Positions 21,615-60,427 of a stretch of DNA of 64,000 nucleotides are shown here, piece by piece. The notes beneath the pieces are model-generated. The model ran no database searches, was not told where the DNA came from, and worked only from the letters and a program-made list of their open reading frames with translations. Made by a program: the position numbers and the translations under genes. Source of the stretch: an uncultured Fibrobacteria bacterium (GTDB taxonomy: Bacteria; Fibrobacterota; Fibrobacteria; UBA11236); NCBI GenBank assembly GCA_963716395.1, contig OY970309.1, positions 2,144,001-2,208,000 of the forward strand. The letters are read 5' to 3'. Each line of letters starts with the position of its first letter. The first letter of the stretch is position 1.

Positions 21615-21717
21615 GGAATCCTCGGGGCGGGCGGTGAAAACGGAAAATAGTTAGGACTGCAAACTACACGAAAGCGGCGACTGTGGCCATGGCTACGCAG
21701 ACCGGCGGCCGGTGAAA

Positions 21718-21741
21718 TTTGTTCGCACCGGTGCGAACAAA
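21718..21741. promoter_or_regulatory. Perfect 24-bp palindrome, probable operator
   Basis: TTTGTTCGCACCGGTGCGAACAAA equals its own reverse complement; lies between divergent SDR/GH63 and kinase genes. Confidence 0.6.
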
Positions 21742-21979
21742 CGATAGGGGAATCACAAAAGCGAATCGCCCCCTGCACGCCGGACATCAAAATGCTCAAG
21801 CACCCGTTCGGGTGTGTGGATAATCCCGGCGCCAAGGGATTGGGTTTTTTCCGGTCCCGTGCAATAATGTCACACGTAGGATCTGGGAACTTTTCACCCG
21901 GTTTGGATTTGCATGCATCCGAAATTCGTGACCAAGCCTTTTGATACCGATGCTTGGGCCCAAGGGAAAACGGGAACCG

Positions 21980-24959: not shown

Positions 24960-24975
24960 ACGCCGGGAAATTCTG

Positions 24976-29719: not shown

Positions 29720-29811
29720 CGGCAAAACGCGTCCGGAAGCTCTGGATTGGAAGGAATCTAAGCTATTATTTGCCGCCTTCTTTCCATAGAGGCGCGTGCG
29801 CCTTCCGACTT

Positions 29812-42349: not shown

Positions 42350-45300
42350 TTATTCCTCCGAAATCGCGTTGATGGAATAGGCGGGGAATTTCACTTTTTC
42401 CCCTTGCCGCAGCGTGCGTTTCTCGATGGATCCGCCTTGCGCGAGATTCGCCGAATCCAACTGCCGCCAGGTTACGGCGCCTTGGAATCCGGGAATTTTC
42501 ACATCGGCCATCACCGCCGTTTTGGGATATTTATTGATGAACAACAGAGTTTTCTTTCCCGCCGGGTTGACGGTTAAATAGCAACTCGTTTGATCATCGC
42601 CGGTATTGCATTCCACCAGCCGTCCGCGCAGACTTTCGCTGGCCAATTTAAAGGCGTAATAGGAAGGGCGGGGAACATCGTCGCCATCGGGAGCCCCGGC
42701 GCGCGACAGGTACCCGTAATCTCCGCCTTGCTCGGTGATGTTGTTCTGAATATCCCAATAATCGGCCTGGGCGATATTGTACCGGGCCAGCATTCCCAAA
42801 TAGTCCGCCACGAACAGACCATTGACGAGGCTGAGAGTTTGCGGCCCAGGGTTCATGGACACGGAGTTCCATTCCGTGAGCCAGAGCTGGTAGTGCTTTC
42901 CCGGAGCCCCGTACTCCGTCAATTGATGCCGTAAGTCGGGAATGATTTCGTTCAGGCTTTGCGGGGCCGACAATAAGCCGACATCATTTTCTTCTCCGGG
43001 AGTCTGGGGATAATGGTGTACGCTCACGGCATCGGCCAAATCCCGGGTGTACTTGAAAACCTCTTGGTTCCAATCCCCTTTCAAGACCCAAACCACCGAG
43101 ACCAAAATGGAGGGATCGACGGCCTTCATGGCCTGGATGAATTCCGCGGCGCGCTTCCCGTAATCCTCTCCGGTGGTGTGGTTGGGATGCCAATCGCCAT
43201 AAAGCTCGTTGCCGATTTCCCAGTAGCGCACGTGGGCTTTCTTCTCCACGTTCACGTAATGCACCCAGTCGGCGGCTTCCTGGGGGGTGCCCGTGCCGAA
43301 GTTCACCGTAATCATCGGTTCGGTACCCGTGCGGCGGCAATACGCCAGGAATTGGTCGGTATTCACCAACCCGTTCCCATTCTTCATGACCTCTTTCCAA
43401 TGATCCACGTCGGCGCGCAACCCGCCCGGATAGCGCAAGACTTTATGGTCAATGGCCTTGACATAGCCTTCGGTTTTGGGATTCAACAAATCGCCGTCCC
43501 AAAGCGCGGCGTTGATTCCGAAAATGCCGTCGTTGATGTGCTGGGTTACGGTCTGGTTCCAATCGCCGGTCACGGTGATTTCTTTTTGGGCCAATACCGG
43601 AGCTTTCTTCACCTCGCGTTGATTGGTGAGGGAGACATCGTCGATGAGGTAGGTTCCCCGGGTGCCGTCTCCCGCGGGTTTGAAATCCAGACTCATCACA
43701 TTGTCCAAATCGAATTTTCCGTTTTGCACCGCGTCCGGCGGTTGATAATAGGCGAACTTGGTGAAATCCTTGAAGGGCAGGATGATTTCGTTCCAACCCT
43801 TGGTGCCGCCGACATTGGCGTCGAAAATCTCGTCGCCGGCGTCATTCACCTGAACCGTAACTCCCTGGTACGCCCTGTCGGTGTATAAGAAGAAACGCAG
43901 ACCCCAATACCGGCTCCAATTCCGTTGTTGCGCCGGACGGTGGTTTTTGGCGTAATCAAACATGACGTCGCACCAGTCGGCCAATTGATAATCGATCGAC
44001 AAAGACTTTTTACCATGACCCATGCCCTTGGCCGCGACGATGGAGGCCGTCACTTGGGATTTGGGCCCGTGGTCGGTCGCCCAACCCTGATCCGCCGGCC
44101 CTTCGAAATCGTGCAGCAGCACATCCGGCGCCGTCGAATGGAAAGCGGCCCAGTACGCCTCCGGATCCACGTATCCCGGGATGGAGTCGACCAGCACCAT
44201 ATCATCCACGTAGAACGAGGCGGGCTGGGTGGAGTCGACCTTGTTCTCTCCCTTGTTGACGGAAAAGCGAATCTCGTTGATTTCATCCCAGCGTACCGGG
44301 GCGGAAATCTCGGCCTTGCGATCCGCATCCCAATACAAGCCGGTGGCTCCGAAACGCTTCAAGGGGATTTGGTAATAATGCCAGGTCGTATCCACGGGGC
44401 CGAAATCACTCAACACCACCTTGGTTTGCACCTTGATGTCATTGCCTTCATTGTCCAGCAGGCCCACATAAATCTTTTGCACCCCCGGAACGCCTTTACC
44501 CCAGAAGGAAAGACCCGCCGTGCCTTGGCGCAATTCGGTTAAATCGAGGTTATGGCCTTTACCCAGGGCCAAGGTGACGCCCGAATAATCCCCATTGTCG
44601 AGATAGCAGGCCAGAATCCCCGGATCCTCCTGGGAACCGGGCTGCACCTTGACCGCGGTTTTCCCGCCGTAGACATAGGTGAAAGCGCCGGCCGGAATTT
44701 CGTCGCGGAACAGGGTATGCACGACATGTCCCTTATCGCCGCGAACCAAGGGCGGGGTGATGGTCTCTTTCTTGTCTTCCCAGTATTCCTGATGCGATTC
44801 CGGTTTCGCGGCAAATACATCGCGCAACACGAAAATATCGTCGACCCAAATCCGGAAGGCGGTGTTGTCGCCTTTTTTGATTTCAACGCGAAACTCCGCG
44901 ACGTCATCCCAATCGAAAGGATTGGGCAATTCCACCTGTTTATGGGGGTCCCAATACACACCGCGGCGGGAGAAATCGGAAAGGGGAATGCTGACCAAAC
45001 GCCACGACTTGGTAATGCCGCCATAGTTGTTCAAGGGAAGGCGCACCACGGTTTTTTTGCCGTCGCGCGTTTCTCCGTCCACCAAAGAGACCCAGGCGAT
45101 TTCGCCGCCGTGCGCGCCTTTGACCCAAAATTGCAGCGCGCCGCGGGCATAATACGGCGTCAAATCATAAGACATGTTGTAAAGGCAGACCGCTCCGCCG
45201 GAATAGTCATTCGGATCCAAATCGAATTGCAAGGAGACTTCGCTGTCATGGCCCGATTCTTCCGGGATATAAACCTTGGACGCGTCGGGATAGGAATACT

Positions 45301-45511
45301 CATACCCCCCCGCGACAAAATCATCGTCGAAGAAACGGTAGACGACGCGGGGATCGACATGCTCCTGCGTGGCGCCCGTGGCGGCCTTGGCGGGCGTCGG
45401 CAGGGGCTTGAATTGCAGGGCACATCCGGCCAAAACCAGAACGGCCAGAAGTCCGTCCCACCATGGCCCGGGCGCCTTGCCGACGCCCAATGTCCGACGA
45501 AAATTTTGCAT
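42350..45511 (-). CDS. Lipoprotein endoglucanase: two CBM30-like modules, a CBM11-like module and a GH51-like catalytic domain (Fibrobacter CelF/Cel51A-like)
   Basis: Lipobox LAGC; duplicated DYSG..FW.KG..W....IPL..F...G.YWD modules; LLHDFE..YQP..NG.FDL; LRYPGG, WEIGNE, LTEWN. Confidence 0.82.
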   Translation of the reverse strand: MQNFRRTLGVGKAPGPWWDGLLAVLVLAGCALQFKPLPTPAKAATGATQEHVDPRVVYRFFDDDFVAGGYEYSYPDASKVYIPEESGHDSEVSLQFDLDPNDYSGGAVCLYNMSYDLTPYYARGALQFWVKGAHGGEIAWVSLVDGETRDGKKTVVRLPLNNYGGITKSWRLVSIPLSDFSRRGVYWDPHKQVELPNPFDWDDVAEFRVEIKKGDNTAFRIWVDDIFVLRDVFAAKPESHQEYWEDKKETITPPLVRGDKGHVVHTLFRDEIPAGAFTYVYGGKTAVKVQPGSQEDPGILACYLDNGDYSGVTLALGKGHNLDLTELRQGTAGLSFWGKGVPGVQKIYVGLLDNEGNDIKVQTKVVLSDFGPVDTTWHYYQIPLKRFGATGLYWDADRKAEISAPVRWDEINEIRFSVNKGENKVDSTQPASFYVDDMVLVDSIPGYVDPEAYWAAFHSTAPDVLLHDFEGPADQGWATDHGPKSQVTASIVAAKGMGHGKKSLSIDYQLADWCDVMFDYAKNHRPAQQRNWSRYWGLRFFLYTDRAYQGVTVQVNDAGDEIFDANVGGTKGWNEIILPFKDFTKFAYYQPPDAVQNGKFDLDNVMSLDFKPAGDGTRGTYLIDDVSLTNQREVKKAPVLAQKEITVTGDWNQTVTQHINDGIFGINAALWDGDLLNPKTEGYVKAIDHKVLRYPGGLRADVDHWKEVMKNGNGLVNTDQFLAYCRRTGTEPMITVNFGTGTPQEAADWVHYVNVEKKAHVRYWEIGNELYGDWHPNHTTGEDYGKRAAEFIQAMKAVDPSILVSVVWVLKGDWNQEVFKYTRDLADAVSVHHYPQTPGEENDVGLLSAPQSLNEIIPDLRHQLTEYGAPGKHYQLWLTEWNSVSMNPGPQTLSLVNGLFVADYLGMLARYNIAQADYWDIQNNITEQGGDYGYLSRAGAPDGDDVPRPSYYAFKLASESLRGRLVECNTGDDQTSCYLTVNPAGKKTLLFINKYPKTAVMADVKIPGFQGAVTWRQLDSANLAQGGSIEKRTLRQGEKVKFPAYSINAISEE

Positions 45512-45532: not shown

Positions 45533-47536
45533 TTAAAAAAGCACGTGCAGAAAGAGATCGGTTTGCAATTGGGAGAAATTCTGATCCGGCAGGTAGCCGG
45601 TGTAATCCATGGAGATGAGTCCCAGGGAAAAATCCACATAGGCCCCCGCCGCGACTTTATATTCGGCGCCGCCCGCCAGGTTGCGTTGCGTGGAAGAATG
45701 CACGGCTCCGGCGACGGTGATGTCGGTTTTGATCTGTTGGTAACCGCCCATCAGGGCCGCGCGCTTCCAGAACTTGTAATACAAACTGGCGTTGGTGAAA
45801 TCACTGGTGACCTTGCGCGCCGCGTAGGTGGTGTCGGCGGCGATTCCGGCATTGTTGGCTCCGGATTGCACCAGGCTTCCCGACAGGGTCAGCGGATTCT
45901 GCAGCCCCAGCATGGAACCGATTTCCAATTTGAGGCCGCCGCCGTATTGGGAATAATCCGTGATGGGCAGCACTTCATTCGTGCCCACGGCCACTCCGGT
46001 GACGTTCTTCAGGCTGGCGAACAGCCCTTTGATTTGCAGGCGGTTCTTCCACACGTTGACGGTGGCATCGCCGGTCAGGCCGGTGCGGTTCGGCGTCGCG
46101 GGGCCGAAGGGCATCACCAGTTGCACGGCGGTATCCAAACGCGAGGCGGCAAAGGCGGCCATCTCCCGTTGGGTCATGATGGAGTTGGAGTACGAAAGCT
46201 TTTGAAAGGGCGCCCGCGCCCAAAGATTGGTCCCCAATTCGGGTGTGAACTTGAACACGGTCCGGTACATGGCGTCGAAGGTGGTGTAGTCGCGCGAGGA
46301 AACGTTGTCGGTGCGCACCTTGGCCGAATCGTTTTCGATGTTCATGATGCGCTGGCCGATAAAGGTGGGGCTTTGCGCCAGGGCATTGTGGTAATTCGCG
46401 TCGTTGCGGATGAAGTCCACGCCCGCGCTGAAATTGAAAGCCTCCGCGAGCGCGGCATTCCCGTGGACGCGCGCCAGCAACGCCGATCCGTTCTTAGCAA
46501 ACGGCGTCGCCGACAGCGAGTCGCCGAATACCGGAAAATATTCGGGCCGGTCCTGCGAAGCGGCATATTCCGCCGAGATGCCCGCGCCCCAATTCGTCAC
46601 CCCGAGCAGCGGCGCCAATTCCAAGCCGGCGCGCCCGTCGAGAATCGAAGTGTTTTGGGCCAGCGAATCGGCGCCGGCCACATACTCGTAGGTTGAATTT
46701 TTGTCGAAGATGAGCATGGCGCTGCCGCCCAGGGAAAAGCCTTTGGGAAAAACGGCTTCGAGATTGGTGGCCGCCAAGTATTTCTCCACCGGGGATTCTT
46801 CGATCTGGTCGGTGGGAAAATCGCCGTTGGCGATATCGGTTTCCACGTTGCGCAGCCGTGAACCCATGGCGTTAATATGCAACTCTTTCAGAATGCTGTT
46901 TCCGGTGGGCGCGTCCACGCCGGCGTCGAAATTGAAATTCACGCCTTGCAAAATCCGGTCGTTATTGCCGAGGAAGACCTCGTCTTCGGCCTCTTGCCGT
47001 TGGGTCTGAAAAATCTCGGGTTCGTACAATACGGAAAGCTCCGGCGCCCACAGCGTGAGGGGACTATAGCGCTGCCGGTATTCGCCGGCATCGTAGCTGA
47101 ACATGCTTTTCACCTTGCCGTCCAGACTGAGCCAGCGGGTGAAAATGGGATTGCTGATATCGGAAAAGAAATTGCGCCAATCCTGGTGCATGCGGAAAAT
47201 CACATGCCCCTGGGTCGCGGTATTGGGCCGGGCGTGGATGTCGAAATCCACCGAAGTGAATTCGGCGGTTTCATCCGATCGCAGATCCGAAATGAGGCCC
47301 GGGCCACTGAGGGACGAATTCAAATATTCCGAACGAAACACGCCGCCGATGGAAATGCCCTCTTTGGCTTGAATGGTTTCCAGGGTTTTCATCACGGAAT
47401 CCGCCACCGAGGTGGAATCCTGGGACCAGGACGAAATCGGGGAGGCGGCGCCCACCAGCAACCCCAACAGGATCAGCCCGATCTCCCCGGAACGCGGAGC
47501 CAACGGGGCTTTGGATGCGAATCGGAATGGGATCAT
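45533..47536 (-). CDS. Outer-membrane beta-barrel protein of unknown family (barrel 2)
   Basis: GGAG RBS, signal peptide, amphipathic strands, C-terminal TDLFLHVLF. Confidence 0.75.
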   Translation of the reverse strand: MIPFRFASKAPLAPRSGEIGLILLGLLVGAASPISSWSQDSTSVADSVMKTLETIQAKEGISIGGVFRSEYLNSSLSGPGLISDLRSDETAEFTSVDFDIHARPNTATQGHVIFRMHQDWRNFFSDISNPIFTRWLSLDGKVKSMFSYDAGEYRQRYSPLTLWAPELSVLYEPEIFQTQRQEAEDEVFLGNNDRILQGVNFNFDAGVDAPTGNSILKELHINAMGSRLRNVETDIANGDFPTDQIEESPVEKYLAATNLEAVFPKGFSLGGSAMLIFDKNSTYEYVAGADSLAQNTSILDGRAGLELAPLLGVTNWGAGISAEYAASQDRPEYFPVFGDSLSATPFAKNGSALLARVHGNAALAEAFNFSAGVDFIRNDANYHNALAQSPTFIGQRIMNIENDSAKVRTDNVSSRDYTTFDAMYRTVFKFTPELGTNLWARAPFQKLSYSNSIMTQREMAAFAASRLDTAVQLVMPFGPATPNRTGLTGDATVNVWKNRLQIKGLFASLKNVTGVAVGTNEVLPITDYSQYGGGLKLEIGSMLGLQNPLTLSGSLVQSGANNAGIAADTTYAARKVTSDFTNASLYYKFWKRAALMGGYQQIKTDITVAGAVHSSTQRNLAGGAEYKVAAGAYVDFSLGLISMDYTGYLPDQNFSQLQTDLFLHVLF

Positions 47537-47547
47537 TTTTACTCCTA

Positions 47548-49911
47548 TCAAAACCACATTTTAATTTCCGCCGACATCAGCACCGCGGTCCAGTCATTGT
47601 CGGTGTAATTCACGTCTTCGTGTTTCATCCACTTCAGGCGGCCGTGCAGGCCGGCCCGGGTGACGAAGTCCCAATCAAATCCGATTCCCGTGGCGTAGTC
47701 GCGGTAATCGATGGGGACCTTGGTCACGATTCCCGTCTGGGAATTCTGCATGTAGGCCAGGTCGGACCGCCAGTTTTCATAGCCCGCCAAACCCAACAGA
47801 TAAAACTTGTCGCTCAGCGCCAGGGCCGGTTCGAAGCGGAAATAGGTGCCCCACAACAGCATGTCGCCGGGGCCGAAGGCCGCCGGTTTGAAGGTGGTGG
47901 AAACGCCGTTCAGGGAGAAGAAAGCGCTCAGGAAAAAATCATGCGCATAGCCGATTTTCGGGCCGAGATCGTAGGCGCCGTCCATGTCGAAATTAAACGT
48001 CCACTTCTGATGGTCGGGCACGTAGGGGGAGGAGGTGAAAATCGTGGTGGCATTTTTCGCCAGGGTATTCGAGTCGGCCTGGGCGGCGTTTTCGTAGGGC
48101 ACAAAACCCTCGTACATCGAGAGGTAATCGCTGCGCAGGCCGCCGGCATCGGGCCCCTCGGGGGTGCCGGATTCCTGCGTGTGGTAACTCTCATCGCCCA
48201 GCCGCTTCTGGTATTTGGAATTCAGAGACACGTCGATGAGGTCGTTTCCCCAGCGGTTATAGGAGGATTGAAAAACGCTGCTCAAATCCTGCCCGTTCAA
48301 ACGGTAGGGAAAGAAGATCAGGTCGCGCGCGGATTCGAGCTGAAAATGTTGGCCGTAATCGATGCGTAAATGCCCATACCCCACCTTGGGGGATACCGTG
48401 AGCAGAATGCCGGCCATATTTTGCGTATAGGGAGACGCTTCTCCGCGCTCAATGAATTTACCGGCGCCCAGCAGATTCGCGCCGAAGGGGAAGAAGGCAT
48501 CCACGGGCGCGGCAAAGGAAAAGGGGGAGTAGAAGCCTTTGGGAATTACGGCGACATCGGCTTGGATGGGCAGCCGGGCCGTGTTTCTCACCATCAGGTA
48601 AAGCGCCGGATGCAGGGGGGTGCGCGTCTCGGTGATGCGCGTACTCGGCGCATACTGGTACAAGGTTTGTCCCAGCGAGTCGTGCTGGGAAGAGTCTACG
48701 GTATATCCGTTGTGGAACATGGTCGTATCCACAAAATTCACGGCCAGGTCCGATTGCATTTCCCAGTGGTCTCCGATGGGCCCCTTGACGTCGATGGAAT
48801 AGGTTTGCGGCTCTTTGTAAAACCCTTTGCCGGCGGGTACGCGCACGATTTTCCCCGAATACGGATCGATGAAGACCGAATCGCCGATCTGAAAGTTCCG
48901 GATAAACAACGGATCGAGATTGATATCGCGTTCGTAGATGATGCCGACGGCATTGAGCCCCACGGTCAGCTTGCCGATGGCGTCTTGCTGGGCCAGGCGG
49001 GCATGCCACATGTGCCGGTACGAATCGCCGATGCCCAGCGACTTGGCGGGGCCGGTTTCGTCGGCATAAGCCAGGTCATTGGAAAAGTCGATGTATTCGC
49101 GTTCGAAATTATCGTAGTTCTCGAAACCCGCGAAGAGAAAATTGAAATACAGATTCGCGGGCAGGTTGATGCTTTCGAGATTGATGCCGTTAAACGCTTT
49201 CTTGTTCCAGGCGGCGCGGCCGGTTTTTGCGCCCTTGGCCATGTCGTATTCGTAGTAGCGCTCGATGGGTTGTTCGACTTCGAAGGGGAGATAATCCCAG
49301 GCGAAGATTCGGGGCTGGGATTTCCAAATGGTCAGCGGCGAGGCCTGGGTCCACATGATGTTTCCCATCTTCAGCCAGAACGAGGCGGGAACGGTGCGGA
49401 TGGCGATGCCGGCGGACATGTCTTCGTCGATGGTGGCGGTTTGATCCGATTTGTCGTGGAACGATTGCGCCTGATTAAACCCGTCTCCATTCGGATCGAT
49501 GGCATAAGAGTTGGTGAAATTGCCCGGAAACGTGTTTTGAAAACCGATTTTGGACCACAACACCACATTGCGGCCGGCCCGGGCCACCATGCCCAGCCGC
49601 AGCATGGATTCGTTTCCCTCCCAGTTCGCCTGGGCCCAACTCACGTCCTGTTCGAGAAAGGTGGGATGATCGGAAAAATCATGCTCCTGCATTTTCAACC
49701 GGGCCAGGCCCGAAAAAGAAACCGGCGACGATCCGCCGAACAGCAGGGTGGATTGCACCTTGGCTTCCAGCGAATCCAAGGTCGACTGCGTGAGGTCTTG
49801 GGAACTGGCCGGGGTGAACAGGGAAAGAAAGGCGGGAAATAAAATGGCGGCTCCCAAGAGCCGAATCCCGGACGGGGCGGGACGAAGCGCCCGCGAAGCG
49901 TGGATTTGCAT
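47548..49911 (-). CDS. Outer-membrane beta-barrel protein of unknown family (barrel 1)
   Basis: Signal peptide, aromatic-rich amphipathic strands, C-terminal LMSAEIKMWF. Confidence 0.75.
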   Translation of the reverse strand: MQIHASRALRPAPSGIRLLGAAILFPAFLSLFTPASSQDLTQSTLDSLEAKVQSTLLFGGSSPVSFSGLARLKMQEHDFSDHPTFLEQDVSWAQANWEGNESMLRLGMVARAGRNVVLWSKIGFQNTFPGNFTNSYAIDPNGDGFNQAQSFHDKSDQTATIDEDMSAGIAIRTVPASFWLKMGNIMWTQASPLTIWKSQPRIFAWDYLPFEVEQPIERYYEYDMAKGAKTGRAAWNKKAFNGINLESINLPANLYFNFLFAGFENYDNFEREYIDFSNDLAYADETGPAKSLGIGDSYRHMWHARLAQQDAIGKLTVGLNAVGIIYERDINLDPLFIRNFQIGDSVFIDPYSGKIVRVPAGKGFYKEPQTYSIDVKGPIGDHWEMQSDLAVNFVDTTMFHNGYTVDSSQHDSLGQTLYQYAPSTRITETRTPLHPALYLMVRNTARLPIQADVAVIPKGFYSPFSFAAPVDAFFPFGANLLGAGKFIERGEASPYTQNMAGILLTVSPKVGYGHLRIDYGQHFQLESARDLIFFPYRLNGQDLSSVFQSSYNRWGNDLIDVSLNSKYQKRLGDESYHTQESGTPEGPDAGGLRSDYLSMYEGFVPYENAAQADSNTLAKNATTIFTSSPYVPDHQKWTFNFDMDGAYDLGPKIGYAHDFFLSAFFSLNGVSTTFKPAAFGPGDMLLWGTYFRFEPALALSDKFYLLGLAGYENWRSDLAYMQNSQTGIVTKVPIDYRDYATGIGFDWDFVTRAGLHGRLKWMKHEDVNYTDNDWTAVLMSAEIKMWF

Positions 49912-50100: not shown

Positions 50101-51480
50101 CTAAACCAATCGATTTTGCCGCATCACTTCGGAATACCATTTGCCGCTTTCCTTTACAATTCGGCGTTGGGTGGCGAAATCCACATGGACGATTCCAAAC
50201 CGTTTCGCGTATCCTTCCGCCCATTCGAAATTGTCCATCAAGCTCCAGGCGAAGAATCCGGCCAAGCCGATGCCTTCCGCCGTCGCCCGATGCGCCTCCG
50301 CAAGATATGCCCGCAGCCATTGCAGCCGGTCCAAATCCACCACGCGACCTTGATCGTCGACGCGATCGTCGCAGGCGCATCCGGCCTCGGTAATGTAAAA
50401 CTTCTCGACTCCGTACACTTCGCGCGCATGTCGGCACCCCCAATACAAGGCCTGCGGCACCTGCTTCAGCCAATCCAGCGCCATGGTCGGGTATTCGAGA
50501 GGGAATTCCATCTCTTCGTAGCCTTTGTCGTCGGCGGCTTCCCGGATATAGGTCCCGGTATAGACATTGACGCCCAGGAAATCCACCGGCTGGCGCATCT
50601 GCTCCAGATCTCCCGCCCGGATTTCCGGAGCATCGGCGCCCTGTTCACGCAGCCACCAGTCGGGATATCCGCCTTGGAACAAGGGCTGCATCAGTCTTCC
50701 GTTGCGTCGGATATATTTCTTGCGCGTGGCTTCCAAGCAGGCGGGGGTTTCCATCAAAGGCACGGGAATCCCCGGTGAATCGACCACGCCGATTTCCGCT
50801 CCGGGCTTGGCTGCGGCCCGCAGGAGTTGCACCGCCAAACCATGCGCCAGAAAAACATGGTGATAGGCTTGGTTCATCATTCGCGGGCCGAGTTGCAGGC
50901 CCGGGGCGTGAATGCCTTGCTGATACCCTTGGCCCAGGAAGATCGTGATTTCGTTGAAGGTCATCCAACTCGGCACGCGATCTCCCAACCGTTGGGCCAC
51001 GGCTTGCACGTACTCTCCGAAGGCCGCCACGGTTTCGCGATTGCACCAGCCGCCCCGATCCTGCAAGGGTTGGGGCAAATCCCAGTGGTATAAAGTCGCG
51101 CAGGGCAGGATGTTTTTGGCCAACAGGGCGTCGACCAGGCGGTCGTAAAACTCCAGCCCTTTGGGGTTCACGGCCCCGGTTCCCAAGGGCACGATGCGCG
51201 GCCAGGCGATGCTGAAACGGTAGGCTTTTACGCCCAGGTCGGCCATCAGGTCCAAGTCTTGTGGCCACCGATGATATTGATCACAAGCGGTTTCGCCCGT
51301 ATCGCCGCCGATCACCTTTCCCGGCGTGGCGCAGAACGTATCCCAAATGCTTTTCCCCCGGCCGTCGGCACGGGTGGCGCCTTCGACTTGAAACGCCGAA
51401 GTGGCCGCACCCCACTGGAATCCATCCGGAAATTTCCGGTAGTCGCGTTGCAGGGGTTCCTGAATCAGAGGGTGGGACAT
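50101..51480 (-). CDS. GH1 beta-glucosidase, cytoplasmic
   Basis: FQWGAATSAFQVEG, TLYHWDLP, TFNE, YITEAG, WSLMDNFEWAEG; no signal peptide. Confidence 0.95.
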   Translation of the reverse strand: MSHPLIQEPLQRDYRKFPDGFQWGAATSAFQVEGATRADGRGKSIWDTFCATPGKVIGGDTGETACDQYHRWPQDLDLMADLGVKAYRFSIAWPRIVPLGTGAVNPKGLEFYDRLVDALLAKNILPCATLYHWDLPQPLQDRGGWCNRETVAAFGEYVQAVAQRLGDRVPSWMTFNEITIFLGQGYQQGIHAPGLQLGPRMMNQAYHHVFLAHGLAVQLLRAAAKPGAEIGVVDSPGIPVPLMETPACLEATRKKYIRRNGRLMQPLFQGGYPDWWLREQGADAPEIRAGDLEQMRQPVDFLGVNVYTGTYIREAADDKGYEEMEFPLEYPTMALDWLKQVPQALYWGCRHAREVYGVEKFYITEAGCACDDRVDDQGRVVDLDRLQWLRAYLAEAHRATAEGIGLAGFFAWSLMDNFEWAEGYAKRFGIVHVDFATQRRIVKESGKWYSEVMRQNRLV

Positions 51481-51500: not shown

Positions 51501-51538
51501 AGGGTACCTCTAAAAATGAATTTCATTAGAGGTACCCT
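51501..51538. repeat. 38-bp hairpin made of the two MITE ends
   Basis: AGGGTACCTCTAA-aaatgaatttca-TTAGAGGTACCCT; TTA flanks GGG...CCC on both sides. Confidence 0.75.
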
Positions 51539-54500
51539 TAATTGTCGCGAATCACTCCGATGCGCCGCACCTGGGAGGCGCCTCCGGCATTGGCCGCCGC
51601 CCCGTTGGAAAGCGGCCAGACCTGCATCTGCCAGATATAGACGCCGGTGCCGGCTTTGGTGCCCTTGTCGGAGCGGGCGTTCCAAATCACCCGGGTAAAA
51701 ACCTTGGTGGCATCGGGCGCCGACGCCGACCCGCCGGGGAAATATTGCGGGCCCACCTCGCCGGTAACCGCCGTCAGAAATTGCCCGGAATGGCTGAATA
51801 TTCGGGCTTCGTAACCGAAAGGGGACGGGCTTTGAATCACAACCCACGGACGGAAAGGATTGCGGATGGTGTCGGTCGAAACCACCGGGCATCCCCCGGT
51901 GCAAGCCACGGCCGAACCGGCCTGTGAGACTTGAATCGGTTGAATATTGCTGCCCGAAGAATCTTGCAAGGCAATCACCCAGGGGTATTCCCCTTCCGTC
52001 CATCCCCCGGCGCGGAAGACGGAGTTCCCCCAGGTCAGCTTCCAGGGGAGCTTGGTGGAGTCGGTGGCGGTGGTGGTGTCGTTGGTGTGCCGGGCCAACC
52101 CTTCCACCACCACCCAGCGGTTTACGGGCAGGGCGGGATTTCCCGCGGAGTCATGCACGCCCTGAGCGGCGCTGACGATGCGCAAGCTGTCGCCCGCATT
52201 GAGTTGCACCGCAGAGGTTGAATCCACCAGGAAGGTCCATTGATTTCCCTGGTTGTTCAGGACCTGGGTAATCGTCAACCCGGCGGCGTCGGTAATCGCT
52301 CCCGCCTGCCATGCCTGAAAGGGATGGCTGTAAGCCAGGTTGTAAACCACCGCTTCGCTGAAGGTCACCGCCAAGGTGTCGGAGGCCAACCGGGTACCGG
52401 AGGCTGACAAAGGCGAGGGATACAGCACCACGCGATCCAACACCGGTCCCGCGCTGTCCGCCAGGGTAAAGGCGGAAAGGCGCTGTTTACCGCCCACGGT
52501 CAGGAAGGAATGACCCGAATTCACATTCGATCCTGTGAACCCCGTCACACCCGACGGAAAAGGCGGCGCAATCGTGACTTCCACCTGGTTTCCGGCCACC
52601 TGAAAAGCGCCGGCGCGAAAGGTCCTTTGACCTGCAGCCGTAGGAAACCAAAGCTGCAAGGAGTCGGGCGGTCCGGCCAGCGCGCTGGAATAAACGACCA
52701 CGGCCTGGTCCACGGCGCCATCCCCGTTCGGGTCGAGGATCCATCCCCGGACCGCTTGGGGAAAGGTCGCCACCGTATACAGAAAAGCCCGTGATATGTC
52801 GGTGGGATCGGTGGGATCTTGATAGGTGGCCCACACCGTGTCGCCGCTGGCCATGGCCATTTGGAAGGGACCGAGCGCGGAGGGTGCGGAATCCAACACC
52901 GCCACCGGAACCTGGGACCGGAAAATACCCGTATGCGCCCCGGTCTCGATCAGGGTCAAGGTCAAACTGTCGTTCTGGTTGGGGTTTTGCACGACGGCAT
53001 ACAAGGTGTCGGCCTGATCGGAGATGTCTCCGTTTTTATCCTGAACTTGCACCAGAAACTTCGTCTGGCCAATCACCGCCAAGGTGGGGAGAGCGGTACT
53101 ATCCACCGGCGACAGCAAGGTGAGGGTGGAGGGATAGGCGTCGGTTTTGGTGTAGTCGATCTGAAAATTATCATCGACGAAGGCGCAGCCGGCGCAGCCC
53201 TGGCAACTGGGATCCGAACCGCCGAAGAGGGTGACATCCACGTCGTTGCGGCCGGGAGTCAGGGTCAAGGGGATGTTCAAATTCCATATATTGGCGGCGG
53301 AGTCGAAAACGGCCGCGGTTCCCAGATTCGGAACCTTGATGCCATTCACCCAGATGTCCGTTAACTTCCCGTCCCCCGAAATAGTTGCAGTGCCTTTGAC
53401 ATGGACCGTCGGCGACGCCTGTTGGATGATCTTGTAGGTTTCGGGCGGATCGTTCAAGGGCGAGGTGAGTTGCGCCGTCATCTGGTATTGGTTCACCTTG
53501 GTGGACTGTTCGGTGGCGGAAGGCGAATAACCCCAAATGAATTCACCCTTGCGGTACACGGTGAAATATTGATCCACTTCGGTGTGGATATACGCCGTGT
53601 CGACGCCGACCTTGGTGCCTGCTTGAATTCCCCCGAAATTCACCGGGTCGCCGTTGGCGGTGGAATGCACCGCCCAGGTCCAGTCGCTGGAATTGGGCAG
53701 GCGAGTGGAGGGCGTATCCAGTAAATCGCCGTTTTCATTGCGCTTCACGAAGGTGATATCCACCCGGAAACGCGCGCCGGATGACATGACCGCATTTCCC
53801 ATCGGCAGCGAGACATACCAGTCATAGGTATTGGTGGCGGGATCGTAAGTATCCGGCATTTTGACGGGAACCTGTTTTTGAATCAAGGTGTCGAGCGCCG
53901 TCTTGAAGGCATTGGTGGGATCGAGATACCCCGACGACAGATACGCCTGGCCGATGTCGTCGCGCACTCCGAAGTCGGCCATCTCCGAATCGGTGGCGCG
54001 CATGTAAAAACGCACGTCAAGCGAGTCATAGCTCTGAATGTCCTGGTTGACGATATTGAAACCCAAATATTGTTTGTCGCCGATATAATAGGTCAGCGCC
54101 CGAATGTCGAAATTAACATGCGTCACGGGCGTGGTGAAGGTGTAGTACTGGCCCTGGTTATTGTCGATGGCTCCGTCGGATTCGACGTAAAACCAGTAGG
54201 TGGTTTTTTCCTGCAAGCCGGAGAGATGCACATAATGGAATTTCACCGGATGCCCCGCCGAATCGACGTCTTGCACCATGGCCTTCGGCGGCTTCGTGGT
54301 GTCGTACACAACCTTGCTGTCGTATTGACCGTTGGGCGTGAACCATAAGATGTCCGCCGAGTTGGCCGTGACATTGCAAACCTTCACCTCTGCGATTTGT
54401 GCGGGCCCCGGCGGTTGGGCCAAGGTCGTGAAGGAGAAATCCTTGCCGCCATTGTTGTTGATGCCGGTGACTCCCTTCACATCGGTGGCTTCGGCCTGAA

Positions 54501-56817
54501 AGTAATACGTGGTTCCTGGCTTTAACCCCGTCAGCACGATGAGGTGATCCACCCCGGCCGAATCCCCGGCTTTGACGGTGGTCAGCGATCCGGTCGCGGT
54601 GCCGTAGCGAATCAAAGCCGTGCCATAATTGTTTTGCCGGATATCGATGATGGCGCTGTCCACCCCGACGTATTTGATCTGCACCTGAATGGTGACCGAA
54701 TCGATCGAGTCATCCTTGACCAGTCCCAATACCGGCAGAAGAATGTTGTCGGTTCCGTCGATGCACGATTCGGAATGGATGTAATCGCCCCAATATTCGG
54801 TGTACAGGCCGGGATCGCCGGCGGCGGGCGGGGGAAAGCCGCCCTGCAGCGCTCCGTCGGGCGGCCGGTAATGATAAAATGCGCCCGGCATATTGGTGCC
54901 TTCGGGGTTGGCGGCGCGATGATGCGGGTGGTTGAAATTCTTGGCGCCCACGCCGTAAATCATGCTGATGTCCCAGGGGTTCACGCCCAGGAAATAATCC
55001 ATTTGCCGCACCAGCAATTCATGTACTTCGGCGGCTTTCCAATCGGTGGTGGCGGGCGTATGCGGCAAGGTGACGCCGGACAAATCCTTGGCGATATCGT
55101 AGTAGCAGAAAAATTCCGTGGAATTGCCGGCGATATAGCGATTCCAAACCCACACCACGTCGGCCAGGGTGTTGATTTTCCACAACGGATCATAGGTCAA
55201 AGTATGCCCCCCCCACAGTGGGGGGTTGGAGGCCGGCAAGTCGATGGTCGCCGATCCCCCTTGCAACAAGCCGATGTTGTTGATGATGGAAAAGACGACG
55301 TTTTCGATGAGACTCAGGCGTTGCGCGGCGTTGATTCCGCAGGCGGCAGCCACGGTCGGATCTTTCAGAATCAAGCGATAAAACGCCCACAGGGTGATCG
55401 AATGGATGTTGGCGTAAGAAGTGTTGGTGCCGCCTTTTTGCAAAGTGGGAGCGTTATAGGCGAACCACCCCCCGGGAAAGGTCCCCGTGGTGAAATACGG
55501 GTTGGCGAACTTTCCCAAAGTCGAGTCTTCATATAGGTCGTAGCGATAACTGGTATCCTTGGTGGCCCACAACAAGGCCACGGCCGCCATGGCCATGTCA
55601 TCGTTGAAGGTGCCTTCGGTGGGATAGGCGCCCGTCGATCCCGAACCCGTCTGTTCCGACTTCCCGAAGGCGTACATTTTTTTGGCGGCAGCCAGGCATT
55701 GCGCGGCATACACGCTGTCATAGGGCGCATATTGTTTGGAAAAAAATGCCAGGCCGGCCGCCACCCGACCCATGATGTTCGAGCCTACTTCATTGCGAAC
55801 ATCGCGCACCGGTCCGCCCAAATTTTGTGGCATGAGATCCTGAAACTGGGGCTGGCCCCACCAGGAATGATCGTATCCGAAATTCCCGACCGAGGTATAC
55901 ATCTTGGAGGGATCGCCCTTCGCGACGTTATAGGATTTCATGAAGAAATCCACTCCCATTTTGGATTCGTACAACATATCGGGAACGCCGTCGGTGTGGT
56001 AGGTGTTGTTCTGATTGCGGCCGTAGTCGTCGGCGTCGCGATCGGGGAGCGCCGCATCCGACAATGCCAGCATCAGCAAGGTGTAGCTCATGGACATGGA
56101 CTCCTTGAGATGATCCCCGCAATCGTACCAGCCTCCGGTGAGCGAGCCGTCGCCATTCGGCCCATCCTTCAAATGCGCGGGTGGATGGAACCAGGAATCG
56201 GTGTTACCGTCCCGGGCGACGCCGAAAAATTTGAGCAGGTCGTCGCGCACCCAGGCGTAAATTTTGTCGTTCACCACGAAGGGCTCCGAGGTGTCGGGGC
56301 CCGACACGATGCGATAGCGCCCGGGCGCGATGGTTTGGGGAATCTGGCCCTCGGACACCTCACCCGCGTAAACCGGGCTCAGCATGGTGTAACGCGTATC
56401 GCCTCCTCCCACCAGCGAGGCGTTGTTGGAAGCCCGAATCGAAAGCTGTCCGGAGGTGGTTTGCCCGGTGGGAGTCAAGGTACCGTTGGCCACGGACATT
56501 CCGTTTTGATCGATGACTTGAAAAGTCGAACTCGAGCCGCCCACGACATAAAAAAACTTCTGATCTTCGGTGCGATACCCGGCCTGATTGACGCGGATTC
56601 TGGAAAACTTGATGTTGAGCGAATCCCGATACAGCTGATCCATGGTATCGGGCAAGGGGTTGGCGATGGGGGCATAAGGCGGCGGATCCACCGCTTGCGC
56701 CTGCGCAATTTTCGTCGTAAACCCGAGCAGGCAAATCAGGGAAAAACCAACCAAGGTTGATTTATGCCCAAGCCTGATAAGTCCACGCATGGACCGCCCC
56801 AAATTTCCCCTGTTCAT
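51538..56817 (-). CDS. Large modular secreted GH9 cellulase (Ig, GH9, two FN3-like, CBM3-like, Ig repeats, Fibrobacter-type CTD)
   Basis: IRVNQAGY, GGWYDCGD, HPHHR, DYIHSE; LTGLKPGTTYYF and LSGLQEKTTYWF; WNARSDKG..GTGVY tail. Start uncertain (56856, 56817 or 56790). Confidence 0.9.
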   Translation of the reverse strand: MNRGNLGRSMRGLIRLGHKSTLVGFSLICLLGFTTKIAQAQAVDPPPYAPIANPLPDTMDQLYRDSLNIKFSRIRVNQAGYRTEDQKFFYVVGGSSSTFQVIDQNGMSVANGTLTPTGQTTSGQLSIRASNNASLVGGGDTRYTMLSPVYAGEVSEGQIPQTIAPGRYRIVSGPDTSEPFVVNDKIYAWVRDDLLKFFGVARDGNTDSWFHPPAHLKDGPNGDGSLTGGWYDCGDHLKESMSMSYTLLMLALSDAALPDRDADDYGRNQNNTYHTDGVPDMLYESKMGVDFFMKSYNVAKGDPSKMYTSVGNFGYDHSWWGQPQFQDLMPQNLGGPVRDVRNEVGSNIMGRVAAGLAFFSKQYAPYDSVYAAQCLAAAKKMYAFGKSEQTGSGSTGAYPTEGTFNDDMAMAAVALLWATKDTSYRYDLYEDSTLGKFANPYFTTGTFPGGWFAYNAPTLQKGGTNTSYANIHSITLWAFYRLILKDPTVAAACGINAAQRLSLIENVVFSIINNIGLLQGGSATIDLPASNPPLWGGHTLTYDPLWKINTLADVVWVWNRYIAGNSTEFFCYYDIAKDLSGVTLPHTPATTDWKAAEVHELLVRQMDYFLGVNPWDISMIYGVGAKNFNHPHHRAANPEGTNMPGAFYHYRPPDGALQGGFPPPAAGDPGLYTEYWGDYIHSESCIDGTDNILLPVLGLVKDDSIDSVTIQVQIKYVGVDSAIIDIRQNNYGTALIRYGTATGSLTTVKAGDSAGVDHLIVLTGLKPGTTYYFQAEATDVKGVTGINNNGGKDFSFTTLAQPPGPAQIAEVKVCNVTANSADILWFTPNGQYDSKVVYDTTKPPKAMVQDVDSAGHPVKFHYVHLSGLQEKTTYWFYVESDGAIDNNQGQYYTFTTPVTHVNFDIRALTYYIGDKQYLGFNIVNQDIQSYDSLDVRFYMRATDSEMADFGVRDDIGQAYLSSGYLDPTNAFKTALDTLIQKQVPVKMPDTYDPATNTYDWYVSLPMGNAVMSSGARFRVDITFVKRNENGDLLDTPSTRLPNSSDWTWAVHSTANGDPVNFGGIQAGTKVGVDTAYIHTEVDQYFTVYRKGEFIWGYSPSATEQSTKVNQYQMTAQLTSPLNDPPETYKIIQQASPTVHVKGTATISGDGKLTDIWVNGIKVPNLGTAAVFDSAANIWNLNIPLTLTPGRNDVDVTLFGGSDPSCQGCAGCAFVDDNFQIDYTKTDAYPSTLTLLSPVDSTALPTLAVIGQTKFLVQVQDKNGDISDQADTLYAVVQNPNQNDSLTLTLIETGAHTGIFRSQVPVAVLDSAPSALGPFQMAMASGDTVWATYQDPTDPTDISRAFLYTVATFPQAVRGWILDPNGDGAVDQAVVVYSSALAGPPDSLQLWFPTAAGQRTFRAGAFQVAGNQVEVTIAPPFPSGVTGFTGSNVNSGHSFLTVGGKQRLSAFTLADSAGPVLDRVVLYPSPLSASGTRLASDTLAVTFSEAVVYNLAYSHPFQAWQAGAITDAAGLTITQVLNNQGNQWTFLVDSTSAVQLNAGDSLRIVSAAQGVHDSAGNPALPVNRWVVVEGLARHTNDTTTATDSTKLPWKLTWGNSVFRAGGWTEGEYPWVIALQDSSGSNIQPIQVSQAGSAVACTGGCPVVSTDTIRNPFRPWVVIQSPSPFGYEARIFSHSGQFLTAVTGEVGPQYFPGGSASAPDATKVFTRVIWNARSDKGTKAGTGVYIWQMQVWPLSNGAAANAGGASQVRRIGVIRDN

Positions 56818-57008
56818 GATTGGAAACCCCGCAATCTTAGTGGAGGGAAAAACCATTCCGGTTCAAACCGAGACTCGGCCTGTGTGCTGAAAATCTTGGG
56901 AAAAATCGAACCTGGAGGCGGAATTTCTAACTAATTGGGAGAGTCAAAACGCGTTGGATGCAAGGGCGGCTCACAGCGGGCCTCGTTTCTCGATTGCAGG
57001 ATTGGTGA

Positions 57009-58088
57009 ATGGCCGAGGTATTGCTCAAGAATATCAACAAAGTCTATGACGGAAACGTGGTGGCCGTCAAAGACGTCAGTCTGGAAATTCGCGATCGGGA
57101 ATTTATGGTGCTGGTCGGCCCTTCGGGGTGCGGCAAATCCACCTTGTTGCGGATGATTGCCGGTTTGGAAGAGATTTCGGCGGGCGATCTCATCATCGAC
57201 GGAAAGCGCTGCAACGAGGTGGCGCCCAAAGACCGCGATATCGCCATGGTTTTCCAGAATTACGCGCTTTACCCGCATATGACCGTGGCGCAAAACCTGG
57301 CCTTCGGCCTGAAACTGCGCGCCATTTCCAACCAAGAAATCCGTGCGCGCGTGCGCGAAGCGGCGGAACGGCTGGGATTATCCGAATTGCTCCACCGCAA
57401 GCCCAGGGCCCTTTCCGGCGGGCAACGCCAGCGCGTAGCCCTGGGCCGCGCCATGGTGCGAAAACCCAAGGTCTTCCTCTTCGACGAGCCGCTTTCCAAC
57501 CTCGACGCCAAACTTCGCGTGCAAATGCGGGTGGAAATCGCCCGCTTGGCCGCCCAGTTGGAAACCACCATGATTTATGTCACGCATGATCAAACCGAGG
57601 CCATGACCTTGGGGCATCGCATCGCCTGTTTGCGCGGTGGGGAAATCCAACAGTTGGGGGCGCCGCTTGAACTTTATAAACACCCCCAGAATGCTTTCGT
57701 GGCGGGGTTTATCGGCATGCCGCCCATGAATTTTTTCCCCTTTCGCCTTGAGGGCGAAACTTTGATCGTTCCCGGCACGCGGGGCAATTGGAAACCCCGA
57801 CTCTCCGAACTGCGCGCTCTGCCGGGTTTTTCACCCGCGAAGTCGATGCTGGGAATTCGCCCCGAACATTTGACCGTCGCCGGGGAAAACGGCGCGGGAC
57901 TTGAAGCCGACGTGGATATCGTGGAACCTTTAGGCGCCGAAACCATGGTGTATTGCCGGCTGGGCGATCTCAAAGCGGTGGCGCGCTTGCCGGCCGAGAC
58001 CACCCTGCGGCGCGGCGACAAACTTTCTTTGGTGCCTCTGTCGACCCACCTGCATTTTTTTGAACCCATTCAGGATACCCCATCATGA
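57009..58088 (+). CDS. Sugar ABC transporter ATPase (MsiK/MalK-like)
   Basis: GPSGCGKST, VFQNYALYPHM, LSGGQRQR, FDEPLSNLDAKLR, YVTHDQ, GIRPEH. Confidence 0.95.
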   Translation: MAEVLLKNINKVYDGNVVAVKDVSLEIRDREFMVLVGPSGCGKSTLLRMIAGLEEISAGDLIIDGKRCNEVAPKDRDIAMVFQNYALYPHMTVAQNLAFGLKLRAISNQEIRARVREAAERLGLSELLHRKPRALSGGQRQRVALGRAMVRKPKVFLFDEPLSNLDAKLRVQMRVEIARLAAQLETTMIYVTHDQTEAMTLGHRIACLRGGEIQQLGAPLELYKHPQNAFVAGFIGMPPMNFFPFRLEGETLIVPGTRGNWKPRLSELRALPGFSPAKSMLGIRPEHLTVAGENGAGLEADVDIVEPLGAETMVYCRLGDLKAVARLPAETTLRRGDKLSLVPLSTHLHFFEPIQDTPS

Positions 58089-59480
58089 AGAAAAAAATCG
58101 CGACTCTTTCCGCAGGCATCGGTTTGGCAGCCGCCGCTTGGCTCTCGGCCTGTCACGCAGAAAAAGGCCAAGCCGGGGCGCCCGACCAAACCGTGCGCAT
58201 CTGGATCATGCCCAATACCCCGAAACCCGAAACCGATATGCAAGCGGTTTTGCAAGGGTTTCAAGCCGATCATCCGCATGTGCGCTTTGAAATAACGGTC
58301 TTGGATTGGGGCAGCGCGTGGACGCGCATCACCACCTCGGCCATCTCCGGCGACGGACCGGACGTGATTCAATTGGGGAGCACCTGGGCCTCTTCGCTTA
58401 CCGATTTGGGCGCCCTGCTTTCCCTGGATGATTTGCAAGACTCGCTGCACGTCATGAATGACTTCCTTCCCGCCACGCGGGAAATCATGCACCCGCGTTT
58501 CGCGCAGCATGTCACTTCTCTGCCGTGGTTTTTGGATGTGCGTCCGCTGTTTTATCGCGCCGACATTTTCCGCAAGGCCAAAGCCGACCCCGCCACGATG
58601 AATACCTGGGATGGTTTTGTCGCGGGCCTGGAGAAAATCAAGCAGGCCAAAATCCATGATGAAAACGGGTTGGTCGAACCCATCGGATTTCCCGGTAAAA
58701 ACGATTGGAACGTGGTGCATAACTTCGCGCCCTGGATTTGGGGAGCGGGCGGGGGATTTTTAAACGCGCAGGGCGATCAATGCATTCTGAATCAACCCGA
58801 ATCCATGCAGGGCATTCTGTTCTATCTGAGCTTGGTGCGCAAAGGGTTGAACAACCCTTCCAATTTGGAGAAAAACACCGCGCAGATCTCCTCCGAATTC
58901 GATGCCGGGCATTTCGCTTCGATCTTCGAGACCACCACGAAAAATGTTTACCTCAATCTGCCCCCGGAACAGGGCGGTATCGGTAACGCCGAGGTGGCGC
59001 AGAATTACCAAGTCGCCATGCCGCCGGCCGGCCCGAAAAAACAGGTGTACTTCATGGGCGGTTCCCAATTGGCCTTGTTTCGCTCGTGCAAGAATCCGGC
59101 CTTGGCGAAAGAGCTGGTGTTGTATCTCTGCGCGAATAAGGCGGCCCAATTGCAGTATTCCAAGCTTATCCGGTTTTCTCCCGGCTTCGCTGGCCGCCTT
59201 GGATGACCCGTATTTCGTGCAAGACCCGAAGCGCAAAGTGTTCAAGGCCATGGTGGCTTACGGGCGCTTTTATCCCAGCGTTCCCTATTGGGCCGAAATC
59301 GAAACTTCGGTGCTGACGCGCCGCCTGGGAAACCTTTTCGACATTGCCGCCGAAGTGAATGGCCCCTATTCCGAGGCCAAGGTCCGCAAAGAAGTCGACG
59401 CGACGGTGCAGGAAATCGACGAAGTGATCCGGCAATATTTTGTCGCCCATCCGCGCCACCCGATGCCCGGGAAGCTTTGA
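58085..59480 (+). pseudogene. Sugar ABC solute-binding lipoprotein split by a one-base frameshift near 59165-59172 (real lesion or assembly error)
   Basis: Lipobox LSAC, GPDVIQLGSTW, PWFLDVRPLFYR, GGSQL; the C-terminus (GFLPA..DP..PYWAEIE) continues in the +1 frame to TGA 59480. Confidence 0.85.
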
Positions 59481-59486
59481 GTATCG

Positions 59487-60422: not shown

Positions 60423-60427
60423 CGACG

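Follow-up and report, generated by a model that had tools for sequence, protein, structure and literature searches.

How do fragments of cellulose pass the outer membrane of Fibrobacter and its relatives, which are among the most effective anaerobic degraders of this polymer? This route is an acknowledged gap, and a locus from an uncultured Fibrobacteria bacterium (GenBank assembly GCA_963716395.1, contig OY970309.1, positions 2,144,001 to 2,208,000 of the forward strand; the whole stretch of 64,000 nucleotides (nt) is called the window below) offers a possible answer. Three tightly packed minus-strand genes lie there between positions 42350 and 49911: A and B, which encode two large secreted proteins, and gene C, which encodes a multidomain protein of the type of the signature endoglucanase Cel51A. 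We consider, with a probability of roughly 0.55, that A and B constitute the TonB-independent outer-membrane part of a beta-glucan/cellodextrin uptake locus resembling a polysaccharide utilization locus (PUL), probably as a hetero-oligomer that would also dock endoglucanase C.

Raut et al. describe the outer-membrane step of cellodextrin uptake in Fibrobacter succinogenes as unknown (PMC6851124), and Fibrobacter is not mentioned in the accessible portion of a 2026 review of bacterial glycoside transporters (PMC13543919). No description of the A and B genes was found in the literature searched, many subscription papers being beyond reach. A and B are thus far the best candidates for moving cellulose fragments over the outer membrane of Fibrobacterota. 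Two concrete genes, phylum-wide and fixed to Cel51A, can now be named, which makes the passage of cellodextrins through this membrane directly testable; they could also be of use in engineering Gram-negative production strains to take up cellodextrins.

Gene A (47548..49911, minus strand, with its TGA stop at 47550-47548) encodes a protein of 787 residues, and gene B (45533..47536, minus strand) one of 667 residues. Both have a signal peptide and end in phenylalanine, within the triplets MWF and VLF, respectively. Read from an upstream GTG, B would have 674 residues; the 667-residue form, which starts at the ATG at 47536, is the one present in the protein database (P0124). The two genes are separated by 11 nt, TAGGAGTAAAA (47537..47547, minus strand), and this short spacer contains an AGGAG Shine-Dalgarno ribosome-binding site, which suggests that one mRNA serves for the translation of both genes. 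The sizes, spacing and terminal residues given in a preliminary description of this DNA were all correct on re-reading. Scans for promoters and terminators gave counts no different from those of shuffled sequences, and the Rfam, tRNA and tandem-repeat scans returned no match.

The same description had proposed that A and B are distant paralogues sharing an SPLT(I/L)W motif. The motif is where it had been placed: SPLTIW occupies residues 191-196 of A (49324..49341, minus strand), within the N-terminal third, the part of the protein that is best conserved and free of indels, and SPLTLW occupies residues 158-163 of B (47048..47065, minus strand). It is moreover a property of both families, since SPLT followed by two residues occurs in 39 of 59 A-family open reading frames (ORFs) and in 39 of 54 B-family ORFs, while the pattern SPLT[ILV][WYF] is absent from the 509 other genes of these loci (235,119 residues). 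Direct comparison of the two proteins recovers little beyond this. The best BLASTP hit between A and B has an E value of 2.1 and covers the hexamer only; hhalign with two 35-sequence family alignments gives a probability of 8%; when the N-terminal parts alone are compared, six motif columns align and nothing more; and a B profile matched none of 150 representatives of the A superfamily.

The relationship becomes visible through an intermediate. A search with the A profile among 1.84 billion protein representatives returned only 199 at E<=1e-3, and the distant members of this set (590-800 residues) form a third family, A3, whose named members are all "hypothetical proteins" of Bacteroidota (Crocinitomix, Salibacteraceae, Schleiferiaceae, Flavobacteriales). 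In hhalign comparisons, A3 matches A with 100% probability (E 1e-44, 559 columns) and B with 86% (E 5.1e-6, 527 columns). Merging A with A3 (362 sequences) and aligning the result to B (164 sequences) raised the probability to 97.9% (E 5.8e-13), the 537 aligned columns covering almost the full length, against 0.5-0.9% for reversed-sequence controls. Every landmark of the layout formerly noted for the two proteins is in register in this merged alignment, although none of this is apparent pairwise: the N-terminal helix, PVSFSGLARLK of A with GISIGGVFRSEY of B, GMVARAGRN with DIHARPNTA, SPLTIW with SPLTLW, FNGIN with LQGVN, and the C-terminal strands. The A hexamer aligns with SPFT of family A3 as well as with SPLTL(W/Y) of B. 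Because of this profile alignment and the register of the landmarks, A and B are, as judged from their sequences, true and very old paralogues, and the proposed distant paralogy holds at profile level. A is nearer than B to the Bacteroidota form, and the superfamily, previously unannotated, spans Fibrobacterota and Bacteroidota.

Closer relatives give a consistent picture of two uncharacterised families. Database searches at E<=1e-3 matched 239 proteins to A, every named one a "hypothetical protein" of Fibrobacterota, and 216 proteins to B, whose named relatives are all "hypothetical protein" too. F787 is invariant in the A alignment, in which 232 columns are at least 90% conserved, and F667 is invariant in the B alignment; the enrichment of residue classes among conserved columns was unremarkable. 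Conservation is unusually high over the first ~330 residues of A, where indels are absent, and the protein varies in length at a few sites only (after residues 335-356, 402-419, 563, 618 and 727). Two of 50 distant A-superfamily relatives scanned, P0332 and P0349, carry an N-terminal CBM_4_9 domain (residues ~24-150) ahead of the homologous part. These fusions point to a glycan theme in the wider A superfamily, which speaks for a role in glycan uptake.

Several lines of indirect evidence suggest that A and B are probably outer-membrane beta-barrels. Both combine a Sec-type signal peptide with a C-terminal aromatic residue, the generic marks of such barrels, and the terminal phenylalanine closes an alternating hydrophobic strand. 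The C-terminal triplets are MWF or TWF in the A family and V.F in the B family, and 33 of 35 members of A3 also end in phenylalanine. Amphipathic alternating segments number 14 in each protein, as opposed to 5.0 +/- 2.2 in shuffled versions of A and 3.4 +/- 1.7 in those of B. When 70 relatives (35 of A and 35 of B) were scanned with Pfam at E<=1, OMP_b-brl appeared below threshold in seven A members and 16 B members, and Porin_4 in one B member. The language-model neighbours of A and of a B homologue, among which are DUF6029 clusters (see below), point the same way.

These putative barrels do not fall into a known family. Neither A, B nor their relatives matched a Pfam or NCBIfam model above threshold, and PDB sequence and profile searches with A and B and with the A, B and A3 family alignments gave nothing below E 0.2, so that the word "uncharacterised", used for the pair beforehand, remains appropriate. 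As for the TonB-dependent transporters, including SusC, no Plug or TonB_dep_Rec domain was found in A, B or the 70 relatives, and in both proteins the stretch between signal peptide and first conserved strand is only ~25 residues long, which leaves no space for a plug ahead of that strand; the earlier remark that no TonB box or plug is evident agrees with this. LptD had no Pfam counterpart among them, and the three family profiles gave hhalign probabilities of 0.2%, 1.4% and 0.1% with the Escherichia coli protein, within the range of the controls. Barrels associated with T9SS (type IX secretion system), such as PorV and PorP/SprF, were not matched by Pfam or NCBIfam at E<=1. Thus the characterised families that would have given the pair another role (TonB-dependent transporters, LptD and T9SS barrels) were looked for by sequence and none was found. 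With 11 E. coli K-12 barrels (FhuA, LptD, BamA, FimD, LamB, ChiP, FadL, PgaA, BcsC, GfcD and YjbH) the three profiles reached at most 1.8%, as with 11 non-barrel controls, in a comparison whose sensitivity is low since the targets were single sequences.

The genomic arrangement ties A and B to each other and to gene C. A pattern scan over one genome per species yielded 57 loci, whose neighbourhoods were fetched to +/-10 kb. All belong to metagenome-assembled genomes (MAGs) of Fibrobacterota, except two records of "uncultured bacterium" and one contig labelled Thermodesulfovibrionales (Nitrospirota; L034, JAOAEO010000110.1). The latter carries A and B and nests in a Chitinispirillia clade beside L044, and is probably a mis-binned contig and not a transfer. 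In each of the 53 loci where this can be judged, B comes directly after A on the same strand, the contig ending inside or at the end of A in the other four, and the gap between the two genes, measured to the first Met, ranges from -44 to +99 nt (median 18). Wherever 542 nt or more remain past B (47 loci), a gene for a CBM30/CBM11 protein comes directly after it; six further loci with B, which have at most 170 nt there, were not counted. This A-B-C synteny is kept in every named class of the phylum, even where A is only ~30% identical (L053-L057), and the flanking genes are shuffled around the intact trio. As A and B are strictly co-inherited tandem paralogues, they may well form a hetero-oligomer, which probably descended from a homo-oligomeric ancestor.

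Gene C (42350..45511, minus strand) starts at the ATG at 45511, 21 nt past the B stop, and encodes 1053 residues with the order CBM30-CBM30-CBM11-GH51-like. Pfam recognises CBM30 in two stretches and CBM_11 in two stretches; residues 717-912 match PDB chains of GH51 (glycoside hydrolase family 51) arabinofuranosidases (E 3.4e-23), and chains of CBM11 and CBM30 proteins were also matched. Among 32 homologues the motif GNELYG (43196..43213, minus strand) is near-invariant, as is the TEW of the motif LTEWNS (42863..42880, minus strand). Their glutamates, E769 and E880, are presumably the acid/base and the nucleophile, respectively, of a clan GH-A fold. By its architecture and glutamate motifs, gene C is of the Cel51A type, with predicted endoglucanase activity. 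The lipoprotein cellulase that had been placed downstream of the pair is borne out by these domains together with the lipobox LAGC. A shortened gene C that keeps only the CBM part was seen in four loci.

The N-terminus of the gene C product may be its tether to the A/B barrels. In the window, the lipobox LAGC (Cys30) is followed by ALQFKPL (45401..45433, minus strand), a candidate for this function. The lipobox cysteine followed by x(L/I)Q(F/L)KP is present in 33 of 47 homologues, and the N-terminal alignment has the consensus CxxQxKPL. The other 14 lack the cysteine and nevertheless keep the motif (as in WLKFKPLKK). Twelve of these 14 belong to one clade of the A tree (L010-L013, L018, L025, L028, L032, L036, L045, L046 and L052), where the segment has the form (W/R)L(K/E)(F/I)KPLKK; the other two are L039 and L053. 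Persistence of the segment after loss of the lipid anchor is the pattern to be expected of a docking peptide.

The other recurrent neighbours are genes for the import and breakdown of sugars. A solute-binding protein gene is present in 40 of the 57 loci, 30 of the SBP_bac_5 type with an Opp-type importer and ten of the SBP_bac_1 type with a MalK-type ATP-binding cassette (ABC) transporter, and 19 of 57 have genes for GH94 cellobiose/cellodextrin phosphorylases; genes of families GH1, GH9 or GH3 occur in few. The order Opp-type ABC transporter, A, B, CBM-GH51, GH94, GH94 was confirmed with Pfam in two loci (L012 and L003). The GH94 proteins inspected (eight of each of two types) begin at the catalytic fold and have no signal peptide, and the binding proteins inspected mostly have a lipobox-like signal peptide. 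Co-localised outer-membrane proteins, a glycan binder, a glycoside hydrolase and an importer make this a PUL-like glycan utilization locus in the broad sense, and the link of A and B to the use of cello-oligosaccharides by gene context is strong.

From these elements a working scheme can be drawn. The conserved N-terminal segment of the CBM/GH51 protein C, aided or not by a lipid anchor, would keep the protein at the A/B barrels, where it would bind single beta-1,4-glucan chains and cut them. A and/or B would let the resulting cello-oligosaccharides through the outer membrane without energy from TonB; the sugars would then be captured in the periplasm by the lipoprotein-type binding protein and be taken in by the ABC importer. 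In the cytoplasm, GH94 phosphorylases or a GH1 beta-glucosidase would cleave them.

Such a scheme has partial precedents. Among described systems the nearest is an atypical PUL for cellulose in Cytophaga hutchinsonii, chu_1276-chu_1280, in which two outer-membrane proteins (CHU_1276 and CHU_1277), a CBM-like binder (CHU_1279) and an endoglucanase (CHU_1280) are all needed for growth on cellulose (PMC12016534). The likeness is one of gene content: in both cases a cellulose specialist of the FCB (Fibrobacterota-Chlorobiota-Bacteroidota) group has two outer-membrane proteins, a binder and an endoglucanase, and no canonical SusC/SusD pair. In Fibrobacterota, however, the binding modules and the endoglucanase usually form one polypeptide, A and B are paralogues of each other, and genes for an ABC importer and for GH94 enzymes are linked to them. 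As in the SusC/SusD utilisomes of Bacteroidota (PMC13543919), a barrel is co-encoded with lipid-anchored glycan-binding and glycan-cutting proteins and with downstream genes for import and catabolism. In contrast to these, the A/B locus shows no plug, TonB box or SusD-like lipoprotein with tetratricopeptide repeats (TPR) (no Pfam match to TonB_dep_Rec, Plug or SusD), and uptake through the inner membrane would rely on an ABC transporter. The working model itself resembles that of LamB and ChiP of E. coli, with ABC or phosphotransferase systems: a passive, substrate-specific oligosaccharide channel that feeds a binding protein and importer encoded nearby. A and B are nevertheless 1.5-1.8 times longer, form an obligate paralogous pair and always have the enzyme gene next to them, and no sequence relation to these porins was detected with hhalign or Pfam.

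For gene C the counterpart is Cel51A of F. succinogenes S85 (endoglucanase F or EG2; FSU_0382 = Fisuc_3111), to which it is likened by architecture. The string CBM30-CBM30-CBM11-GH51 reported for FSU_0382 (PMC6851124 Table 1) is the same, and the sizes are about equal (1053 residues against a reported 118.6 kDa), although gene C has a lipobox cysteine whereas for FSU_0382 cleavage of the signal peptide at 23-24 was reported. FSU_0382 is a confirmed cellulose-binding endoglucanase, recovered in outer-membrane fractions and with no BTD or T9SS signal (PMC6851124; PMC6204037), and it is encoded by the most highly expressed gene for a carbohydrate-active enzyme (CAZyme) of S85. FSU_0383 was considered as the S85 orthologue of A or B and rejected, being DsbA. 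One peptide of C9RQE2 (Raut 2019 supplement) gave alignments with the A and B sets that did not exceed background.

Some data weigh against an uptake function, and must be taken into account. In the statistical assignment of Burnet et al. (2015), Fisuc_3111 fell into the periplasmic fraction (PMC4668043), and because of this Cel51A might not be on the cell surface. The "hypothetical protein" genes beside Cel51A in S85, Fisuc_3109 and Fisuc_3110 (FSU_0380 and FSU_0381), which may be the orthologues of A and B, have a mean rld of 8.7 as opposed to 13.5 for Cel51A and belong to another expression cluster (PMC6204037 supplement); if they are orthologues, a stoichiometric co-function of A/B with Cel51A becomes less obvious. 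With the sugar porins LamB and ChiP, hhalign gave at most 0.2% and 0.7%, respectively, and no Pfam LamB or OprD match was found. Covariation analysis (reduced alphabet; effective sequence numbers, Meff, of 116 and 230) showed no antiparallel ladders above the parallel-diagonal background, and a windowed hairpin scan, which covered A in part, gave gap-rich artefacts only. Mature A and B, with 750 and 630 residues, are far larger than classical 16-18-strand sugar porins, and the long, conserved and indel-free N-terminal third of A need not be pore. A glycogen-type phosphorylase, which is not a cellodextrin enzyme, is encoded downstream in ten of the 57 loci (PF00343 in L057 and L037). Finally, gene context is linkage, not mechanism.

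The main rival to the uptake hypothesis is that A and B are chiefly a device for the export, surface display or anchoring of the Cel51A-type protein, in the manner of Slam-type translocators or two-partner secretion barrels, with sugars crossing the membrane elsewhere. We regard this as unlikely, though with a substantial minority chance of being right. The tightest tie of the pair is indeed to the CBM/GH51 gene, in 47 of 47 loci, the ABC and GH94 genes being more variable. In addition, the organism has T9SS cargo, since a protein similar to 3-keto-disaccharide hydrolases encoded in the window (38390-39520, minus strand) bears TIGR04183, a type A sorting domain of the T9SS (33.8 bits against a cut-off of 23 bits), whereas no T9SS sorting domain was detected in gene C by Pfam and NCBIfam scans. 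FSU_0382 is likewise associated with the outer membrane despite having neither a BTD nor a T9SS signal, and the N-terminal segment retained in the 14 homologues without the anchor cysteine behaves as a docking or export signal would. On the other hand, the recurrent importers and cytoplasmic phosphorylases are left unexplained, no POTRA, TPR or DUF560-like domain was found by Pfam in A, B and the 70 relatives, and the Bacteroidota and CBM_4_9-fused relatives have no Cel51A-type partner fused or named, as judged from the proteins themselves. A role of this kind would be compatible with the uptake role that we favour.

A bolder version of the uptake hypothesis, which we find rather improbable, is that A, B and the Cel51A-type protein are the long-postulated machine by which Fibrobacter-like bacteria thread single chains of cellulose or long cellodextrins across their outer membrane. 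The hetero-oligomer of large paralogous barrels would be the conduit, and the CBM30/CBM11 and GH51 modules, tethered at the channel and possibly on its periplasmic side, would pull the chain in and cut it without TonB. A tether on the periplasmic side would fit the fractionation of Fisuc_3111 with the periplasm and outer membrane. If true, this would be a new architecture for glycan uptake at the outer membrane, and a simpler form of it would be common to some Bacteroidota by way of the related single-gene family.

We give little credence to a third explanation, in which the pair serves as general-purpose porins or as structural proteins of the Fibrobacterota outer membrane and its adjacency to the cellulase is inherited synteny without functional coupling. 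The different transcript level and expression cluster of the putative S85 neighbours of Cel51A (PMC6204037) would agree with it. However, the trio persists across all the named classes, down to the ~30% identity of A seen in L053-L057, and stays intact while its flanks shuffle, and its very short spacers are consistent with an operon. Moreover, with only 199 cluster representatives among 1.84 billion proteins, the A family is small and specialised and not a major porin class.

There is scant probability that A and B secrete an exopolysaccharide, as barrels of the Wzi, AlgE or DUF6029 kind. The suggestion comes from language-model comparisons, in which the nearest named clusters are DUF6029 (PF19494), with scores of 0.95 for A (184 shared features) and 0.96 for a B homologue (199 shared features), and one neighbour cluster of A is auto-named "putative Alginate export domain-containing". 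DUF6029 has been linked through HHpred to plug-less, Wzi-like 18-strand barrels encoded near genes for outer-membrane polysaccharide export (OPX) proteins (PMC9603273), and A and B resemble these in being uncharacterised, probable outer-membrane barrels tied to polysaccharides. Yet there is no match at the level of hidden Markov models: Pfam DUF6029, Alginate_exp and Wzi were absent from the 70 members at E<=1, and hhalign with PgaA, BcsC, GfcD and YjbH gave at most 1.1%, no better than controls. The conserved neighbours of A and B are all catabolic or import genes and not genes for polysaccharide export; no OPX, Wzx/Wzy, synthase or glycosyltransferase was found among 26 neighbour proteins scanned with Pfam, and phmmer searches with the window genes detected no homologue of the window glycosyltransferases in any of the 57 loci.

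The weakest proposal, that A and B are an energised TonB-dependent-like transporter such as Raut et al. proposed for cellodextrin uptake by F. succinogenes, draws on their size, near that of 22-strand barrels, on the up-regulation of TonB/ExbB/ExbD on cellulose in S85 (PMC6851124) and on the TonB-dependent transporter folds retrieved by CHU_1276 of the analogous C. hutchinsonii locus (PMC12016534), but it is very unlikely given the lack of Plug and TonB_dep_Rec domains noted above, the room ahead of the first conserved strand, which would not fit a plug of ~150 residues, and hhalign probabilities with FhuA of at most 0.3%.

In the window, the genes around the trio are those of its nearest relatives in another order. 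A GH1 beta-glucosidase gene lies 189 nt upstream of A (50101..51480, minus strand; Pfam Glyco_hydro_1, E 2.3e-144; NCBIfam TIGR03356, 538 bits against a cut-off of 478.5 bits), and next to it is a gene for a GH9 endoglucanase of 1772 residues with CelD_N and fn3-like domains (51538..56856, minus strand); each has a homologue in four of the 57 loci. Pfam domains cover only residues ~85-910 of the GH9 protein, the last ~860 residues having no Pfam or NCBIfam match, and no T9SS sorting domain was found in it with these two collections. Divergent from this GH9-GH1-A-B-C string is a four-gene sugar ABC importer (57009..62269, plus strand) made up of a MalK-type ATPase (57009-58088), an SBP_bac_1 binding protein (58085-59206) and a pair of permeases of the BPD type, at 59487-60422 and at 60314-62269 (the latter with an uncertain start). 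In L002, L004-L008, L014 and L048 this importer set sits directly upstream of A. The second permease ORF (651 residues) has BPD_transp_1 in its last ~190 residues only, and a long form of ~610-670 residues is kept in these same eight loci.

Further from the locus, ORFs of 447, 269, 520 and 506 residues at 21605-25157 and 28205-29725 (both minus strand) have no Pfam family at E<=1e-4, and some of the four may be spurious, given the G+C-rich DNA. Over the first 32 kb the G+C content lies mostly at 0.60-0.67; it is 0.525-0.54 at 38-44 kb and 0.555-0.60 in the rest of the CAZyme region. A flagellin gene is present at 27355-28182 (plus strand; Flagellin_N, E 2.7e-23). The A, B and C genes place this genome among soil Fibrobacteria-like MAGs, and the cultured Fibrobacter species are, to our knowledge, non-flagellated.

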